Assembly: GCA_044229975.1 (NCBI GenBank)
Contig: JBGARZ010000002.1
Location: forward strand, 128,001 to 192,000
Origin: Polyangiales bacterium
GTDB lineage: Bacteria > Myxococcota_A > Polyangia > Polyangiales > Ga0077539
DNA length: 64,000 nt
Direction of reading: 5' to 3'
Part shown: positions 13,035-24,953 of the stretch, one piece after another
How the letters are laid out: each line of letters begins with the position of its first letter
Position numbering within the stretch: the stretch's first letter is position 1
The notes under the pieces: model-generated
Database searches by the model: none
Told to the model about the DNA's origin: nothing
What the model saw: the letters and a program-made list of their open reading frames with translations, nothing else
Program-made: the position numbers and the translations under genes

Positions 13035-14981
<1,947 letters not shown>

Positions 14982-15067: not shown

Positions 15068-16063
15068 TCAGCCCCGTGCGACGCGTCGCCGGAGCAGCAC
15101 CCGACCCGAACGCCGGTCGAGCGTCACCGTCGCGCCGTGCAGCACCAGAGCCTCGGCGCGAGAGAGGTCGCGCGGGGTGAGCGCCGCGTGGGCGAGCGCG
15201 CGGGCGTCGTGCCGGAGGTGCACCGCATCGGCCGACGGGCACACCGCCCTCACCGCGGCCCGCGCGACCCATGGCCCGCGCAGCCCGCGGAGCGCCTCCA
15301 CGTCGAGCTCCAATGCCTCACCCACCGCGCCGCCTCGCACCAACGCTTCGGCGTCGTGCGCGAGCATCCGCTGCACCCGACGCGACTCCCGCCCGAGCTT
15401 CGCGAGCGCCGCCGACGAGCCGGGCGCGACGGCCCTCAACCGCGGCAGGATCATCGTCTCCAGCGCCGGGAGCAGCCGGTCGCGCGAGGGCTTCTGGTCG
15501 GGCGGGGGCAGCGGCACCTCGACGCCCAGCAGCGACGCGAGCGACGCGGCCTCGGAGCCCTCCAGGGTCAACAGCGGACGCACCACGCCTCCGCGCAGCT
15601 TCGGCGCGAGACCGCGGATGGAGGTCATGCCGCGCCCACGCAGCAGTTCGAGCAGCACCCGCGACGCGTCGTCGTCCCGCGTCGGCGCGAGGGCAATGCG
15701 GGTGTGCCCCTGGTCGGTCGCGAGCCGTCGCAGCTCGTCGATCACGCGCACCCGCCCGGCCGTCGCCGACGGTCGCACGCCGTGGAAGGTCAGCCCGAGC
15801 TGCCGCGCAAGGCGACCGAGGTCGGCCACCTGCTCGGCGTCGTCGGACTCCTCGTCGAGCCGACACTCCACCGCGGCGACCGCAACGTCCGCGAGGCCCA
15901 GCGCAGCTCGCGCGTGGATGAGAAGGCCCAGGAGACCGAGGCTCGACGCGTCGGCGCCGAGACCTACCAGTACGCGGTCGCCCGGCTGAAAGAGCCGCTG
16001 GCGCTGCGCGAACGCGACGGCCCTGCGCAGCACCTGCTCGACCCCCGAGGCGTGCTGACTCAC
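15068..16063 (-). CDS. TilS (tRNA-Ile lysidine synthetase)-like protein with degenerate catalytic motifs
   Basis: TilS scaffold (PGDRVLV, LLRGRG, VVRPLL) and canonical position upstream of ftsH, but the PP-loop SGGxDS reads GLGADASS. Confidence 0.75.
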   Translation of the reverse strand: MSQHASGVEQVLRRAVAFAQRQRLFQPGDRVLVGLGADASSLGLLGLLIHARAALGLADVAVAAVECRLDEESDDAEQVADLGRLARQLGLTFHGVRPSATAGRVRVIDELRRLATDQGHTRIALAPTRDDDASRVLLELLRGRGMTSIRGLAPKLRGGVVRPLLTLEGSEAASLASLLGVEVPLPPPDQKPSRDRLLPALETMILPRLRAVAPGSSAALAKLGRESRRVQRMLAHDAEALVRGGAVGEALELDVEALRGLRGPWVARAAVRAVCPSADAVHLRHDARALAHAALTPRDLSRAEALVLHGATVTLDRRSGRVLLRRRVARG

Positions 16064-16260
16064 AGGAGCTCGAACTCCTTGCAGAAGGTTCCGTCGCGCG
16101 ACCCTTCGCCCTCGAAGGCCGCGCGTCGGTGCATCGCGTTGGGGTAGCCGTTGGCGCAGCGCCCGCCCTCCGCCACGAAGAACACGCAGTCCTCGCAGGC
16201 GTGCCTCAGCACGAAGCGCTCACGCTCGGCGATGAACTCCCGATCGACGACGCTACGCAC
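16060..16260 (-). CDS. Small 4-Cys hypothetical protein (CxxC-x9-C...C)
   Basis: 66 aa ORF overlapping both neighbours; ACEDC, RC, FCKEF. Confidence 0.65.
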   Translation of the reverse strand: MRSVVDREFIAERERFVLRHACEDCVFFVAEGGRCANGYPNAMHRRAAFEGEGSRDGTFCKEFELL

Positions 16261-17503
16261 GCCCCGCTCCCTTCGTGGCCACGAGCGTCGCGACGACCTC
16301 CACCAGCGGCGTCTGTGGAAACATCTCGAAGGCCGCCAGGCGCTGCAACGTGTACTTCGCCGAGAGCGCCTGGAGGTCGCGACCGAGGTGCTCCGGGTCG
16401 CACGAGACGTAGACCACGCGCCGCACCGGTGCGCTCACCAGCACCGCGCACGCCTCGCGCGCGCCCGTCCGCGGCGGGTCGAGCACCACCACGTCGGCCT
16501 TCCACGGCCGCGTCCGCACCTCCACGGCCTCCTCGTGAACGCTGACGTTCGTGATGCCGCGGTTGGTCAGGTTGACGCGCAGCGCCTCCGTCGCGTCGCG
16601 GTCGGACTCCACCGCCGTCACCTTCGCGGCGCTCTTCGCGAGGCACACCGTGAGGTTGCCCGCGCCCGCGTACAGCTCGACCACCGAGCGACCCGCGGCC
16701 TGGGCTTCGCTGTCGACGTACGCCGCGAGCGTCGGGTTGAGCGAGCCGTTGGCCTGACCAAATCCCCCGATGCCCGCGCGCAACGGCAGTCCGTCGCCGC
16801 CCACCTGCACCGGGCACGGGTCTCCCTCGATGGCAGGCGCGCTCACACCCGGTGTCCACAGTGCGACCCCGGCGAAGCCCCGGGTCAACAACTGGCGACC
16901 GACCGCGTAGCCCCGCTCGTCGAGCGGTCGCTGCGGTCGCAGGCTCGCCACCGGCCGACCGCCTTCGCCGAGCGCGATGGCCGCCTCGCCGCGACCGCCC
17001 AGCGCCGCGATCGCCTCGCGCAACGCGGGCAACGCCGCCTCCAACGCGGGCACGAGCACCGGGCACGACGGGAGGTCGACGATGGTGCTGGAGCGACGTT
17101 CGAGGAAGCCCAGGAGCACGCGCGGACCCGACAGGGTCCAGTGCAGTCGGGCGCGGGTGCGGTAGCCGTACGGGGCGTCGCTCGCGACGTACGTGACGGG
17201 CGTCGTGCGGAGTGCGGGGGGGAGCGCGCGCTGGAGGCGTTCGAGGCGGGCGGCCTGCTGGGCCGACGGCGAAGCGTGCTGCCAGGTGCAGCCGCCGCAG
17301 CGACCGAACACCGCGCACGGCGCCTCGACGCGCGCGTCGGACGACTCTTCGCGGGCCACGGTCGCCCAGCCGTTGCCCTCGCGGCGGACGCGCCAGCGCT
17401 CACCGGGGAGCGTGTCTTCGAGGCGCACGACGGTGCCGTTGAGGCGGGCGATGCCCTCCCCCGACGCGGCGAGGGACTCGATGGTGACGACGGACTCCTT
17501 CAC
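16253..17503 (-). CDS. rlmD: 23S rRNA m5U methyltransferase RlmD/TrmA family
   Basis: TRAM-like N-terminus, CAVFGRCGGC Fe-S motif, GYRTRARL, ELYAGAG, LDPPRTG, YVSCDP, EMFPQT; GTG start overlapping upstream stop. Confidence 0.88.
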   Translation of the reverse strand: MKESVVTIESLAASGEGIARLNGTVVRLEDTLPGERWRVRREGNGWATVAREESSDARVEAPCAVFGRCGGCTWQHASPSAQQAARLERLQRALPPALRTTPVTYVASDAPYGYRTRARLHWTLSGPRVLLGFLERRSSTIVDLPSCPVLVPALEAALPALREAIAALGGRGEAAIALGEGGRPVASLRPQRPLDERGYAVGRQLLTRGFAGVALWTPGVSAPAIEGDPCPVQVGGDGLPLRAGIGGFGQANGSLNPTLAAYVDSEAQAAGRSVVELYAGAGNLTVCLAKSAAKVTAVESDRDATEALRVNLTNRGITNVSVHEEAVEVRTRPWKADVVVLDPPRTGAREACAVLVSAPVRRVVYVSCDPEHLGRDLQALSAKYTLQRLAAFEMFPQTPLVEVVATLVATKGAGRA

Positions 17504-18138
17504 TGGAACCGCTGCGCCGGCCGACCGCGCACGAAGTAGAAGCGGAACCACCCCTCCAGCTCGCCGACGCTGTCCGAGAGCACCCGCGGCTCGCGTGCGG
17601 CGGGGCCGGTCGGGGCGCGCGAGGGGTCGGTGTCGCGCACCTCGCGGGGGTCGCGCAGCGAGATCGAGAACTGGGTCACCTCGGTGAGGCGCTGCGTCGC
17701 GTCGGCGTTGGGGTCGCCGCGATAGATGGAGCTGAACACCACGTAGCCGTGCGTCGCTTCGAGGGCGACGGTGGGCGAGTAGGCGGTGAGCTCGCGGCGT
17801 CCGCACGTGTAGTTGGGGCGGAAGACCGCCTGCACCGGCGCGACACCGGGGAGGCCCACCGGGATGCGCTCGTTGAGGTGCGCCGCGACGTAGGCCGTGT
17901 CGTTGACGCGCCACACGAACTCGTCGCTGAACTCCGCGGTCTCGCCGCCCTGCGCCACGCGGATGATGAGCGTGCCGTCGTGGAAGTCGCCGCCGAAGAA
18001 CACCGGCTTCAGGTCGAACAGCTCCGTCGACACCCCGCACACCTCGAGGTGCAACGGTCCGCGAACATCACCGCTCCCCTCGCCCACGCTGCACCCCGCG
18101 AGGAGCACCAGACCCAGTCCTCGCCAACGACCGCTCAC
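17500..18138 (-). CDS. Hypothetical lipoprotein
   Basis: Lipobox LLAGC after a hydrophobic signal; coupled overlaps with both neighbours. Confidence 0.75.
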   Translation of the reverse strand: MSGRWRGLGLVLLAGCSVGEGSGDVRGPLHLEVCGVSTELFDLKPVFFGGDFHDGTLIIRVAQGGETAEFSDEFVWRVNDTAYVAAHLNERIPVGLPGVAPVQAVFRPNYTCGRRELTAYSPTVALEATHGYVVFSSIYRGDPNADATQRLTEVTQFSISLRDPREVRDTDPSRAPTGPAAREPRVLSDSVGELEGWFRFYFVRGRPAQRFQ

Positions 18139-19196
18139 GATGGAAGCTCCGTGATCCAGGCGCCACCGACGACGCGATCGCCCGCATAGAGCACCGCCGC
18201 CTGCCCGGGCGCAACCCCTCGCTGCGGCTCCGCGAATCGCAGCGTCGCCCGGCCCTCACCGAGGTCTTCCACCGTCGCCTCGACGCCCGTGTGCCGGTAA
18301 CGGATGCGCGCCCGCACCTGCGTCGGCCGGGTGTCGCTCAACCAGCGGAAACCCTCCAGGGCCGCGACGCTCGTGCGCGTCTCTTCGTCGTCGCCCACGA
18401 CGACGGCCGCCCGCTCGGGGACGATCTTCAGCACGTAGCGCGGGCTCCCGGCGGCGCCGATGCCCCGGCGCTGTCCCGGCGTGAAGGCGTGCACCCCGTC
18501 GTGCTGCCCCACCACCTCGCCGCGGAGTGTCTCGATGGGACCGGGGCGCGCCGCTCCGCCGCCGTGACGCTCGACGAAGCCTGCATACGGTTGACCTTCG
18601 AGGAAGCAAAGGTCGACCGAGTCCGGCTTCTGCGCGTTGGGCAGCCCCGCCTCCGCGGCGAGCGCCCTCACCGCGGGCTTCTCCAGCCCGCCGAGCGGGA
18701 GGTGCAGCCGTCGCAGCGCCTCGACCGGCGAAGCCCAGAGAAAGTACGACTGGTCCTTGCTGGCGTCGGCGGCGGCGCGGAGGTCGACGCCGTCACCATC
18801 GAGCGAGACCCGCGCGTAGTGCCCGGTGGCGATGGCGTCGGCCCCGAGGCGCGTGGCGATGTCCCACAACGGCCCGAGCTTCACCGACTCGTTGCAGCGC
18901 ACGCAGGGGCTCGGTGTGCGCCCTGCGGCATAGTCCTCGACGAAGCGGTCGACGACCTTCTCGCGAAACAGCGAGCGGCGGTCGAAGGTGTAGTGCGCCA
19001 CGCCGAGCAGCTCGCAGACCCGCGCGGCGTCGTACTGATCTTCAGGCGAGCAGCACCGACCGGCGTGCCCCTCGCGGACGTAGTCCCACAGGTGCAGGGT
19101 GACGCCGATGACCTCCCAGCCCTCGCGGTGCAGCACCGCCGCGGCCGCGGACGAGTCCACCCCGCCGCTCATTCCCACCACGATTCGCCGCGCCAC
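18135..19196 (-). CDS. mnmA: tRNA 2-thiouridine(34) synthase MnmA
   Basis: GMSGGVDS PP-loop, GRTPSPCVRCN, ATGHYAR, KDQSYFL, DSVDLCF, PGQAAVLY. Confidence 0.95.
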   Translation of the reverse strand: MARRIVVGMSGGVDSSAAAAVLHREGWEVIGVTLHLWDYVREGHAGRCCSPEDQYDAARVCELLGVAHYTFDRRSLFREKVVDRFVEDYAAGRTPSPCVRCNESVKLGPLWDIATRLGADAIATGHYARVSLDGDGVDLRAAADASKDQSYFLWASPVEALRRLHLPLGGLEKPAVRALAAEAGLPNAQKPDSVDLCFLEGQPYAGFVERHGGGAARPGPIETLRGEVVGQHDGVHAFTPGQRRGIGAAGSPRYVLKIVPERAAVVVGDDEETRTSVAALEGFRWLSDTRPTQVRARIRYRHTGVEATVEDLGEGRATLRFAEPQRGVAPGQAAVLYAGDRVVGGAWITELPS

Positions 19197-19210
19197 GAGT
19201 GCAGGTCCTC

Positions 19211-19426
19211 TCAGAACCCCAGGAAGGTCTGCGCGGCACCGTCGACCAGCGCGGACCACTGGCCGATGGTGAACACCGTCGCCACGACGACCAGCACCAT
19301 GCAGCCGTCGATGGCGAACACGGCCCAGCCCGGGGCGCAGGCGTCACACGGAGCAGGCGCGCGGGCGGGCGAGCGGTAGGGGCTCACCGCCACGGGCGCG
19401 CAGGTCGATGGGGTTGAATCGATCAT
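19211..19426 (-). CDS. Small hypothetical membrane protein
   Basis: 71 aa with SPYR motif and hydrophobic C-terminal helix; fills the gap between the epimerase and mnmA. Confidence 0.45.
   Translation of the reverse strand: MIDSTPSTCAPVAVSPYRSPARAPAPCDACAPGWAVFAIDGCMVLVVVATVFTIGQWSALVDGAAQTFLGF

Positions 19427-21221: not shown

Positions 21222-21225
<4 letters not shown>
20488..21225 (+). CDS. folK: HPPK (FolK) with ~90 aa C-terminal extension
   Basis: IGAGTNLG, PQPDYLN, RWGPRTLDLDLL, VPHP motifs. Confidence 0.9.
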
Positions 21226-22187
<962 letters not shown>

Positions 22188-22189
22188 CG

Positions 22190-22849
22190 ATGCCCGTCTT
22201 CGTGGCCGTGGTCGGCGTCGGCGGTCTCGGCTGCCCCGCGGCGCTCGCGCTCGCCGAGGCGGGCGTCGCGCTGCGGCTCATCGACGAGGACACCGTCGAC
22301 CGCTCCAACCTCCATCGCCAGGTGCTCTTCACGGAGGCCGATGTCGGTCGACGGAAGGTCGATGCGGCGCGCGATGCGCTCGCGAAGATGGCGCCCGGGA
22401 TGGTGGTGGAGACGCGCCCCGAGCACCTCGCGCCGGAGAGCGCGGAGTCCCTGCTGCGCGGCGCGGCGGTGATCGTCGAGGGGAGCGACAACCTCCCGAC
22501 GAAGTTTTTGACGGCGGACGTGGCGCGGGCGTTGGGGGCGCCGGTGGTGCACGGCGCGTGCGTCGGCTGGGGCGGCACGGTGCTGCCCGTGAAGTGGGGC
22601 GACGGCGCCTGCTACCGCTGCGTCTTCGAGGACGTGCCCGACGAGGAGGCGACGACCTGCGCCATCGCCGGGGTCTACGGGCCGATCACCTCCGTCATCG
22701 GCGCGATGATGGCGCGCGACGCCTTGAGGCTGCTGCACGGTGACCGCAGCACCGTCGGCAGCCTTGCGCGATACGACGGCTGGAACCAGACGTTCCGCTC
22801 GTCGTGCTTCGCGCGGCGCGGCGATTGTCCGCTGTGCGGTCGCGGCTGA
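22190..22849 (+). CDS. ThiF/MoeB/HesA family E1-like adenylyltransferase lacking the N-terminal Arg-finger segment
   Basis: GVGGLG, DTVDRSNLHRQ, SDN, CYRC and CPLC Zn sites, TTCAIAGV; begins directly at the first beta strand. Confidence 0.9.
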   Translation: MPVFVAVVGVGGLGCPAALALAEAGVALRLIDEDTVDRSNLHRQVLFTEADVGRRKVDAARDALAKMAPGMVVETRPEHLAPESAESLLRGAAVIVEGSDNLPTKFLTADVARALGAPVVHGACVGWGGTVLPVKWGDGACYRCVFEDVPDEEATTCAIAGVYGPITSVIGAMMARDALRLLHGDRSTVGSLARYDGWNQTFRSSCFARRGDCPLCGRG

Positions 22850-22873
22850 GGTTCCAGTGGACCCAGCGACGGT

Positions 22874-22887
22874 TTCAGTTTACTGAA
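22874..22887. promoter_or_regulatory. AT-rich palindrome TTCAGT-TT-ACTGAA upstream of the sulfur-carrier gene
   Basis: 6-bp inverted repeat in an intergenic AT-rich patch; AGGAGG RBS at 22908-22913. Confidence 0.35.
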
Positions 22888-22919
22888 TGCGCGAACAATC
22901 GCTCCCAAGGAGGCTCTCG

Positions 22920-23192
22920 ATGGCGATCACGGTGCGGGTTCCGACGCAGCTTCGGACCCTGACGGCGGGCAAGGAAGAGGTCAGTGGCACGGGCGCGACG
23001 GTGGGCGAGCTCATCGACCAGCTCGAAGGCGCGCACCCCGGCCTCAAGGATCGGCTGCTCGATGCCAAGGGCATCCGCCGCTTCGTGAACCTCTACCTCA
23101 ACGAAGAGGACGTCCGCTTCCTCGAAGGGCTCGCCACTCCGCTGAAGGACAACGACACCCTCACCATCGTCCCGGCGATCGCGGGCGGATGA
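22920..23192 (+). CDS. MoaD/ThiS/CysO family ubiquitin-like sulfur carrier
   Basis: VRVPTQLR, RRFVNLYLNEEDVRFL, C-terminal PAIAGG; strong RBS. Confidence 0.92.
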   Translation: MAITVRVPTQLRTLTAGKEEVSGTGATVGELIDQLEGAHPGLKDRLLDAKGIRRFVNLYLNEEDVRFLEGLATPLKDNDTLTIVPAIAGG

Positions 23193-23491
23193 GCGACCGG
23201 CCGCTCGACCACGCGCGCTACGGGCGGCAGATCGCGCTGCCCGAACTCGGCGTGGCAGGTCAGCGGTCGCTGGCAGAGGTCGCGGTGCGCTTCCATCCCG
23301 ACAATCCCCTCGCGCGAGAGGCGCACGAGCGTGCTGGTGGCACCGTCTCGGACTATGCCTCCGTCGTCATCGAGCTGCCGGTGGGCGGACGGGGTGTTGC
23401 CGCGTGGGCGAGCGTCGAGGCGGCGCGTCGGGTGCTGGGTCAGCCTGCGAAGGCGCTGCCGCCAGGGCTGGCGGCGCGGTTGGGTGAGTGA
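23189..23491 (+). CDS. Minimal ThiF/MoeB-like protein (N-terminal RYxRQ segment plus remnant helices)
   Basis: ARYGRQIALPELGVAGQRSL matches the MoeB/ThiF N-terminus; no GxGxxG; 4-nt overlaps with both neighbours. Confidence 0.75.
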   Translation: MSDRPLDHARYGRQIALPELGVAGQRSLAEVAVRFHPDNPLAREAHERAGGTVSDYASVVIELPVGGRGVAAWASVEAARRVLGQPAKALPPGLAARLGE

Positions 23492-24429
23492 TGCTGCGAC
23501 CGAAGCGATTGGACTCCATCCTCGACGCAGTGGGCAACACGCCGCTGCTGCGACTGCGAACGCTAGAGCGCGACACACCGGGCGTGGAGATCTACGCCAA
23601 GCTGGAGTTTCAAAACCCCGGCGGCTCGGTGAAGGACCGCGCGGCGCGGCAGATCTTCACCGACGCGCTCCGCCGCGGTGACCTCACCCGCGATCGCGTG
23701 CTCATCGACTCGACCTCGGGCAACACGGGCGTCGCCTACTCGCTCGTGGGCGCGGCGCTCGGCTACCGCGTCGCGCTGGTGATGCCGTCCAACGTGTCGC
23801 AGGCGCGCAAGGACATCACCCGCGCCTTCGGCACCGAGATCATCTACTCCGACCCGCTGGAGGGCAGCGACGGCGCGATTCGCCTTGCCCGCAAGCTCGT
23901 CGCCGAGCGGCCCGACCACTACTACTACCCCGACCAGTACTCCAACGAGAGCAACCCGCTGGGGCACTACCTCACGACGGGGCCGGAGATATTGGCCGAC
24001 GTGGGCGACCGCATCACGCACTTCGTCACGGGCCTCGGCACTACCGGCACCATGATGGGCACCACGCGCCGCTTGAAGGAGCACCACCGCCCCATTCGCT
24101 GCGTGGCGGTGCAGCCCGCCGACGCGCTGCACGGCCTGGAGGGCCTCAAGCATCTGCCGAGCTCGCTGGTGCCGCCCATCTACAGCGACGCCGTGCCCGA
24201 CGAGACCATGTGGATCAACACCGAGGACGGCTGGGACATGACCGACCGGCTCTGGGAGCAGGAGTCGGTTCACGTCGGTCACTCGGCCGGGGCCAATGTG
24301 TTTGCCGCGTACACCATCGCGCGTGACCTCGCTTCGCGGGGCGAGCCCGGCTGCGTCGTGACGATCCTTTGTGACCGCGGCGACCGATACTTCCTCCCGA
24401 TGAAGTGGGAGCGTCTCTACACCTGGTGA
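23488..24429 (+). CDS. cysM: Cysteine synthase B / CysM-type PLP enzyme
   Basis: NPGGSVKDR, STSGNTG, GLGTTGT, LHGLEGLK, DRGDRY; context with sulfur carrier and JAB protease. Confidence 0.85.
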   Translation: MMLRPKRLDSILDAVGNTPLLRLRTLERDTPGVEIYAKLEFQNPGGSVKDRAARQIFTDALRRGDLTRDRVLIDSTSGNTGVAYSLVGAALGYRVALVMPSNVSQARKDITRAFGTEIIYSDPLEGSDGAIRLARKLVAERPDHYYYPDQYSNESNPLGHYLTTGPEILADVGDRITHFVTGLGTTGTMMGTTRRLKEHHRPIRCVAVQPADALHGLEGLKHLPSSLVPPIYSDAVPDETMWINTEDGWDMTDRLWEQESVHVGHSAGANVFAAYTIARDLASRGEPGCVVTILCDRGDRYFLPMKWERLYTW

Positions 24430-24443
24430 GAGGGAGTCCGACG

Positions 24444-24953
24444 ATGCGTACCCGACCGTGGCTACAGGGCAATCTCGTGATTCCGCAGGACGTCCTCGAC
24501 GACGTCGACGCGCACGCCCGCGAGGCGTACCCCGGCGAGTCGTGCGGGCTGCTCCTCGGCCCCGCGGGTGACCCGCGCGTCATCACGTCGGGGCGGCGCG
24601 TGCCCAACCTCGCCGACCGCTATCACAAGCTCGACCCCGAGACGTACCCGCGCACCTCGAAGAACGCCTACATCATCGACGGCATGCTCATGCAGCGCGC
24701 CCTCGCGGACGGCGACGCGGGCGGCGTTCCGGTGAAGGTGATCTATCACTCGCACTGCGACGTCGGCGCGTACTTCTCCACCGAGGACAAGATCGTCGCG
24801 TCCCCGGAGGGAACGCCCGTGCTGCCCGTCGTGTATCTCGTCACGAGCGTGCGCGAGGGCGGCGTGGTCGACGACCACAAGCTCTTCATCTTCAAGGATG
24901 GCGACTGGGACGAGGCGCCGTACACCATCGGGCCGCGTCCCTCGATGGTGTAG
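24444..24953 (+). CDS. JAB/MPN (M67) metallopeptidase, Mec-like
   Basis: YPGESCGLLLG and YHSH...FSTED JAMM motif. Confidence 0.9.
   Translation: MRTRPWLQGNLVIPQDVLDDVDAHAREAYPGESCGLLLGPAGDPRVITSGRRVPNLADRYHKLDPETYPRTSKNAYIIDGMLMQRALADGDAGGVPVKVIYHSHCDVGAYFSTEDKIVASPEGTPVLPVVYLVTSVREGGVVDDHKLFIFKDGDWDEAPYTIGPRPSMV

Follow-up and report, generated by a model that had tools for sequence, protein, structure and literature searches.

The window analysed here, a 64,000-nucleotide stretch of a draft genome of a Polyangiales bacterium, encodes a 331-residue protein of the TilS fold (15068..16063, minus strand; defined by its ORF, profiles, an AlphaFold2 model, and a family alignment) in which all catalytic motifs are degenerate, and which is kept under strong purifying selection across a family of myxobacteria whose AUA-reading tRNA gene has switched its anticodon from CAU to UAU. 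TilS, the lysidine synthetase, is normally an essential enzyme. The overall account that we consider reasonably probable comprises an in-place switch to UAU, the loss of TilS catalysis, and the survival of the protein as a non-catalytic, partner-binding dimer, most likely acting on the FtsH system.

The ORF contains zero internal stops, begins with a GTG codon overlapping the stop of the upstream ORF, and has ftsH directly downstream. Its product scores 28.6 bits against PF01171 (cut-off 27) and 25.7 against TIGR02432 (cut-off 93.6), the latter below the TilS threshold. The AlphaFold2 model (pLDDT 89.7) has Aquifex TilS as its best structural match over the whole length (Foldseek E 1.8e-16; Z 24.6, rmsd 3.7, 302 aligned), with lower values for TtuA/NcsA (Z 20-21). 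TilS was top-ranked as well when solved structures were searched by profile, ESM Atlas matches were TilS clusters only, and a scan of named genomes with the window protein found no relative. Both the TilS fold and the orthologous position before ftsH are present, and, judged by sequence and model together, the protein is a TilS descendant and not a member of another PP-loop family. The original prediction of a full-length TilS scaffold at the tilS-ftsH locus thus held, and the possibility set against it, a different PP-loop family with intact motifs, is not the case, TilS being the best fold match and the motifs being lost. A thiolase of the TtcA/TtuA/NcsA type was also considered and rejected: the protein has no intact PP-loop with CxxC cluster ligands and contains a single Cys, and the TtcA of this genome is a separate gene. 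In current annotation, such family genes are named active TilS or are missed. Examination of the gene's neighbourhood for repeats and RNA families gave nothing above chance; in RNA runs, fewer than 1/10 of the words were present, and the coverage was traced to ftsH homologs of other organisms.

Every motif reading made in the original prediction proved correct on re-reading. The PP-loop (residues 34-41; 15941..15964, minus strand) reads GLGADASS in place of SGGxDS, so that Ser and Asp are lost and the last Ser (S41) is kept (sequence and column profiles). The former DHGLR loop (residues 64-70; 15854..15874, minus strand), now AVECRLD, forms the start of an acidic loop and is among the fastest sites in the family (profiles and site rates). 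At the former HxxDDQAET motif (residues 127-135; 15659..15685, minus strand), PTRDDDASR keeps T128 and D131 and has lost Q, E, and T (sequence and profiles), and the DxSN lysine loop and RxRxR motif (residues 186-202; 15458..15508, minus strand) are gone (family alignment and site rates), residues 186-196 reading PPPDQKPSRDR at the place of DxSN...RNxxR. The AR..RY motif is absent, with a short deletion. The names of these motifs are in part those of general usage. Across 47 family sequences, SGGxDS, DHxLR, HxxxDQAE, and DxSN were found in none, whereas the same motifs occur in 52, 53, 42, and 50, respectively, of 53 TilS sequences from sister families; motifs other than SGGxDS were defined here by invariance in these 53 outgroup sequences. 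Regular-expression matches to AR..RY and RxRxR (3 and 6 in the family) were unsupported by the aligned columns, which show loss at each. Since none of the 47 sequences retains the motifs and nearly all sister TilS do, the loss is not due to chance or assembly error, and the protein is almost certainly dead for lysidine catalysis as far as its sequence can tell. The SGGXDS motif itself is confirmed in PMC12069591 (available in part).

How AUA is decoded in this organism was examined in the genome to which the window belongs (G000; a 10.0 Mb draft, 93% complete). AUA is in use: the original prediction had pointed to a cysM codon, and ATA indeed lies in frame at 23989..23991 (plus strand) within ORF 23488-24429. 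It is rare: among the 1.94 million codons of 5,286 long ORFs passed by a crude gene filter, 387 are AUA, and 345 of these ORFs have one. A check of AUA as Ile covered 8 codons only: Ile is invariant in the columns of 2, the columns of another 5 are mixed with Leu, Val, or Ala most frequent, and 1 falls in a Met/Val column of doubtful alignment. The same part of the window (21222-24953) carries cysK-like, thiF/moeB-like, ubiquitin-like sulfur carrier, cysM-like, and JAB-like ORFs, a cluster that from its sequence looks like a sulfur-carrier cysteine pathway.

Two ways out of the decoding puzzle had been proposed, namely a second active tilS or the reading of AUA by another route such as a tRNA-Ile with UAU. 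The first failed: profile searches found no second TilS in G000, whose two PF01171 matches are the degenerate tilS and a TtcA with two CxxC motifs, nor an active one in 31 genomes of the family. The second fits, as ARAGORN found a tRNA-Ile(UAU) gene outside the window (G000:C20:281741-281814) and no tRNA-Ile2(CAU); profile, pattern, and relaxed ARAGORN searches of this draft assembly did not find one either. Of the two CAT tRNA genes found by ARAGORN, one is an initiator and the other an elongator Met with C3-G70, a pair used as a criterion for elongator Met in PMC1635315 (available in part). The TAT gene has G3-C70, C4-G69, and C5-G68, as in Ile2 genes, and is the sole match in G000 to an outgroup Ile2 profile. 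Hidden CAT or GAT tRNAs were sought and discarded, since no candidate apart from the TAT gene and the two Met genes looked real; tRNA-Ile(GAU) is absent from the assembly by profile, pattern, and relaxed ARAGORN searches, and TiaS was found in none of five family genomes. Judged from these genes, AUA is very probably read by the UAU tRNA without lysidine, which at gene level settles how the codon is decoded. On G000 contigs C2, C4, C16, C19, C32, C33, and C36, the standard set is accompanied by many clusters of atypical second-copy tRNA genes (for example, C19:132218-132612 and C32:448987-449441), and a tRNA-Sec gene lies on C31.

The switch is a family trait. We compared 31 family genomes from 10 genera, all drafts of uncultured myxobacteria, with 170 genomes from 23 sister families. 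With a tRNA pattern fitting both anticodons, 28 of the 31 family genomes were matched, all TAT, and neither form was found in the other three; in the sister families, 120 of 170 were matched, all CAT, the 50 without a match including all 15 of one family, of which the one member checked with a looser pattern has CAT. TilS over cut-off was found in 0/31 family genomes versus 162/170 sister genomes, the best 30 family matches in the TilS search being all TtcA; these two counts include G137, which is flagged unpublished and whose omission shifts each by at most one. The gene adjoining the TAT tRNA has the CAT tRNA beside it at 10 of 12 outgroup loci, and therefore the anticodon changed in place. 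At gene level, this shows a C34-to-T switch at the ancestral Ile2 locus with no CAU substrate or active TilS left in the genes found; as the members are related by descent, it counts as one evolutionary event. An active TilS and a tRNA-Ile2(CAU) might instead lie in unassembled DNA, with the degenerate gene a diverged paralog, given that all genomes are drafts and that the G000 assembly, at its level of completeness, is without tRNA-Ile(GAU); with TilS missing from every family genome and present in nearly all sister genomes, and with the dead copy occupying the tilS locus and the TAT gene the Ile2 locus, we regard this as extremely improbable.

Outside the family, a strict pattern that may miss others found TAT in one gene among 397 other genomes of the phylum. 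It belongs to an accessory array of 18 tRNAs (L262:601-2764; G473:C114) as an Ile1-like tRNA-Ile(TAT), and G473 retains intact TilS and Ile2(CAT). One outgroup genome, G036, has two TilS over cut-off (G036:C23:17455-18018 and G036:C575:908-1441), the second of which (L239) clusters with distant TilS, so that transfer or bin contamination is indicated. Several family members have two TtcA-like paralogs, among them G017 (L038, L065), G012, G016, G022, G024, G043, G044, and G046.

Recognition of a UAU anticodon depends on isoleucyl-tRNA synthetase in the known case of Mycoplasma mobile, where Arg at the zinc-finger site (R865) confers it (PMC3575796, available in part). The residue after the second zinc-finger Cys of family IleRS1 is Arg (CxxCR) in 5 of 18 sequences, from genera g3, g9, and g10; the other 13, G000 included, retain Trp, which in E. 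coli disfavours UAU and which 3/3 outgroup IleRS1 also have; this speaks against the overall account. Four further family members have type 2 IleRS (4/4 checked). An insertion of about 25 residues before the IleRS1 zinc finger was present in 18/18 family and 0/3 outgroup sequences; IleRS1 of genera g1, g7, and g8 has an extra insertion of about 55 residues after a degenerate KMSKS-like motif, and IleRS switches between type 1 and type 2 within the family (L097:307-3528, the G000 ileS; L120-L138). As to the wobble uridine, mnmG was found in 0/61 genomes of the order from 24 families (sole weak match, G000:C38:774811-775113), and mnmE over cut-off and elp3 in 0/5 genomes each, so that, judged by gene content, wobble uridines in the order seem not to receive their usual C5 modification. 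With mnmG missing from the whole sample of the order, a family-specific loss coupled to the switch is rejected. Lacking MnmEG, the order may easily leave U34 unmodified. An unmodified U34 suffices in M. mobile (PMC3575796) and in B. subtilis, where it prefers AUA (PMC3919564; both sources available in part).

Although the enzyme's task appears to be gone, the gene is not. A family profile found dead tilS in 28 of 31 genomes, or in 19 of 20 at a completeness of 90% or more, and in all 28 loci it sits between a small cysteine gene and ftsH. Among the 28 copies, 14 are full length, 13 lack the C-terminal domain (stop after about 210-240 residues), and one, in G021, is frameshifted. Metagenome searches added about 20 clusters at 50% identity, all motif-less, followed by a gap to ordinary TilS, and in a quick tree of 109 rows, from which fragments and near-duplicates were excluded, the 36 dead rows formed one side of a long branch (SH-aLRT 100). 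For the N-terminal domain, dN/dS among orthologs was 0.07 on the grid and 0.061 by free fit in genus g1 (7 sequences), 0.13 in g5 (7 sequences), and 0.17 in g9 (4 sequences, wide interval), that is, 0.06-0.17 overall and similar to the 0.10 of the active TilS N-terminal domain in one outgroup genus (12 sequences); references were 0.10-0.13 for rlmD and 0.03-0.05 for ftsH. The codon-model grid was preferred, NG86 being biased at 71% GC; close-pair values agree with the codon models, and dN/dS = 1 was rejected (2dL 145-639). These codon comparisons show purifying selection on the N-terminal domain despite loss of the ATP-, lysine-, and anticodon-binding motifs, and together with the presence of the gene in most family genomes they agree with the earlier idea of a retained pseudoenzyme.

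Could the protein nevertheless be a slowly decaying relic, kept as a harmless fold or as a spacer for the operon or the ftsH promoter? The frameshifted copy, the repeated loss of the C-terminal domain, and the long branches within the family would fit such decay. So would a promoter-like element before ftsH, TTGA(A/T)-N14-TGCTA, whose -35-like TTGA in many genomes shares bases with the stop codon of tilS; it is common to the family and the outgroups, differs in g1, g8, and g9 (by eye), and is kept even where the C-terminal domain has been deleted. This overlap, however, touches the last codons only, dN/dS is as low as that of active TilS and RlmD, R87 is invariant in 67 sequences where covered, and the frame is open in 27/28 copies over about 22 substitutions per site of tree length, so that we consider a relic very unlikely.

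What selection preserves is not what it preserves in the enzyme. Site rates of 55 dead and 53 active sequences were only weakly correlated (Spearman 0.31). Positions 76, 77, 80, 83, 84, 87, and 95 are fast in active TilS and among the slowest in the dead family (A80, G83, R87, R84, and E77 with rates of 0.18-0.30 versus 1.8-3.2), whereas the equivalents of H67, R70, R104, and N189, invariant in active TilS, are among the fastest in the dead family. Most of the gained sites lie on helix 74-87 (15803..15844, minus strand; model, profiles, and rates), of which residues 75-88 form a single helix in the AlphaFold2 model and whose newly conserved face comprises D/E74, A76, E/D77, A80, D/E81, G/A83, R84, and R87. 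Weighted profiles gave D/E74 98%, E/D77 100%, A80 89%, D/E81 100%, G/A83 100%, R84 96%, and R87 100% and, elsewhere in the protein, K/R155 100%, R150 84%, and 87% for both R208 and R210. By helical periodicity, small residues flanked by charges would lie on one side of the helix and may form a docking groove, and we treat it as a predicted binding site. That conservation has moved to other sites suggests a new role in binding, in line with the new role that the original prediction had proposed.

A conserved surface need not be the only thing under selection, and S41, T128, D131, R162, and P163 are kept in both the dead and the active groups. A remodelled pocket, with new chemistry or with nucleotide or phosphate sensing through S41, T128, D131, R162, and a partly kept H127, would draw on the low rates of these residues, which rank with the slowest in either group, and on a glycine-rich loop that is still present in most members. 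Yet the PP-loop has lost its Ser and Asp, DHxLR its His and Arg, and QAET its Glu, the lid is acidic and variable, and the kept residues may be structural, all of which makes such a pocket distinctly doubtful. That the N-terminal domain is kept for binding a protein or nucleic-acid partner, as opposed to ligand sensing or decay, is quite likely.

The protein may also bind itself. A model of two copies of residues 1-236 gave an ipSAE of 0.46 (best of 3 controls, 0.00) with at least 97% contact agreement between runs and a pLDDT of 81; among solved pairs, 20 of 30 reached the mark of this complex test, as did 1 of 23 single chains, figures that are only roughly valid with the alignment used. The predicted interface consists of residues 140-146 and 197-230, the latter helices (15374..15475, minus strand; complex model and profiles) bearing the family-specific R208, R210, and D/E217, and it leaves helix 74-87 free. 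An antiparallel self-dimer through helix 74-87 was considered and dropped, the model having used other helices instead. Aquifex TilS is a homodimer. The dimer pass may echo likeness to solved PP-loop dimers, of which NcsA is one (PMC10067955, available in part).

Genes around the locus offer candidate partners. ftsH (13035..14981, minus strand; TIGR01241, 857 bits) is the downstream neighbour in 28/28 family loci and is followed by folP, cdaA, and glmM. The adjacency of tilS and ftsH is ancestral (8 of 9 outgroup loci), and therefore it is no evidence for a special link; by eye, no family-wide operator was seen in the DNA that precedes ftsH at the family and outgroup loci, and hpt lies on a separate contig of G000 (C25), so there is no tilS-hprT adjacency. 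On the other side, a 66-residue four-cysteine protein of no Pfam or NCBIfam family (16060..16260, minus strand), whose stop overlaps the start of the degenerate tilS, is encoded upstream in 28/28 family loci by locus comparison. It carries CxxC...C...C and a conserved FCK[ED]F end, is likely metal-binding by this sequence pattern, and is widespread in Myxococcota, its ESM Atlas matches being Myxococcota clusters. It is not a family invention, since 12 of 16 outgroup genomes carry it elsewhere, in many cases behind fabF-rpiB and in one case close to rlmD. Further upstream lie rlmD (16253..17620, minus strand, start approximate; profile), part of the block upstream of the gene in the family, and mnmA, the U34 thiolase (18135..19259, minus strand, start approximate; profile), three genes away. 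From the gene orders compared, the 66-residue gene reached the degenerate tilS together with rlmD through one rearrangement that brought an mnmA-rlmD block. As a partner, it is the next candidate after FtsH, though a fairly unlikely one.

The position of mnmA, which recurs in record L096 with the gene order of the window, raises the possibility that the dead TilS serves tRNA-Ile(UAU) itself, either as a chaperone or as a Ctu2-like subunit that brings the MnmA or TtcA thiolase to U34 and so restricts reading to AUA. Wherever both were observed, the anticodon switch goes together with the loss of catalysis, the newly conserved arginines (84, 87, 150, 155, 208, and 210) would suit such a task, and Ctu2 is a precedent for a diverged, non-catalytic subunit of the PP-loop family (PMC10067955, available in part). 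The arginines of AR..RY and RxRxR are gone, however, and the C-terminal domain, which in TilS reads the anticodon stem (PMC11947777, available in part), is absent in 13 of 28 members; canonical tRNA binding as the kept function is unlikely because the anticodon arginines have been lost and the domain reading the anticodon stem is dispensable. Moreover, the matching helices of family TtcA are without clear change relative to 6 outgroup copies (by eye), so that co-divergence of TtcA with the dead TilS was set aside, M. mobile and B. subtilis manage with an unmodified U34, and arrival of the mnmA-rlmD block by one rearrangement makes its position a single event. A role on tRNA-Ile(UAU) is hence unlikely, and a third bacterial way of separating AUA from AUG, in which a former lysidine synthetase, now a non-catalytic subunit, docks a partner on its new helix face and controls the chemistry or handling of U34 of tRNA-Ile(UAU) in parallel with Ctu2, is quite improbable.

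We thus return to a non-catalytic partner of the FtsH system. At gene level, C34 of Ile2 has changed to T in place, neither a CAU substrate nor an active TilS remaining. By comparison with M. mobile and B. subtilis, U34 would be unmodified, aided by the lack of MnmEG, and would prefer A over G, and IleRS would accept UAU through the Trp-to-Arg change, a type 2 enzyme, or some other change. Since the UAU gene probably reads AUA directly, TilS is likely no longer needed; the ATP-, lysine-, and anticodon-binding motifs have been lost, yet the N-terminal domain stays under purifying selection. The selected function may be binding through helix 74-87, and a new partner would fit the new conserved surface better than an old moonlighting role. 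That the target is FtsH or the ftsH promoter, with the protein as regulator or adaptor, is a tentative guess by analogy with TilS-HprT of B. subtilis.

The family offers a natural experiment in which an 'essential' enzyme is without its only known job family-wide and yet has not been discarded, and in which whatever the TilS scaffold is selected for becomes accessible to study independently of lysidine. It bears on why tilS adjoins ftsH in many bacteria and on how pseudoenzymes originate without gene duplication, extends the few known lysidine-free AUA decoders by a lineage with large, GC-rich genomes, and, with three IleRS states (Trp, Arg, and type 2) in one family, provides a ready test of UAU recognition.

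Several known systems resemble parts of this case. With type II TilS of Aquifex aeolicus (PDB 1WY5/2E21/2E89; TIGR02432), the degenerate protein shares fold, whole-length domain order, place before ftsH, and descent; it differs in its lost catalytic and anticodon motifs, a score far below cut-off, a genome without CAU substrate, a newly conserved helix face, and a dispensable C-terminal domain. Lysidine-free UAU decoding is known from M. mobile, Bifidobacterium, and Neorickettsia (PMC3575796, Table S1) and from a B. subtilis suppressor (PMC3919564). The M. mobile kind is alike in having one TAT and two CAT tRNA genes and no active TilS and alike in part in IleRS, 5 members showing the Trp-to-Arg change in the zinc finger and at least 4 having an IleRS of type 2. 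It differs in that no tilS homolog exists there (in M. mobile the tilS DNA is gone; PMC1635315, available in part), whereas here a degenerate one is kept in 28/31 genomes and selected; in that the UAU gene here derives from Ile2 in place and not from Ile1; and in that the family genomes are large (assemblies of 4.7-12.2 Mb), GC-rich, and not reduced. Within the available part of Table S1 of PMC3575796, nine bacteria have TAT, two CAT genes, and no tilS, eleven have TAT, extra CAT genes, and tilS, and none has TAT and two CAT genes with a tilS homolog. A tilS homolog coexists with TAT, as here, in Lactobacillus casei, Planctomycetes, and others of that table and in G473, but the L. casei-type bacteria keep at least three CAT genes and G473 an intact TilS, while the present family has a degenerate TilS and has lost Ile2(CAU). 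In B. subtilis, TilS-HprT activates ftsH (review PMC8152036 on Lin et al. 2014, available in part), a non-catalytic TilS role tied to ftsH like the one proposed here by analogy; there TilS is active and hprT adjacent, whereas here hpt lies apart from tilS and a shared operator was not observed. Likewise, Ctu2/Ncs2, a non-catalytic subunit of the eukaryotic U34 thiolase (PMC10067955, available in part), is a diverged PP-loop-family protein without catalytic residues that is kept by selection, but it is a duplication product paired with an active paralog, and no active TilS paralog is present here. A literature search for a retained dead TilS in UAU switchers, with most subscription papers outside its reach, found no case, and the available parts of PMC12514573, PMC13752280, PMC11938285, and bioRxiv 2022.10.28.514323 contain none. 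Within the literature searched, lysidine-free UAU decoding is known, and what is new is a family-wide case together with a TilS pseudoenzyme that has been retained, selected, and resurfaced.
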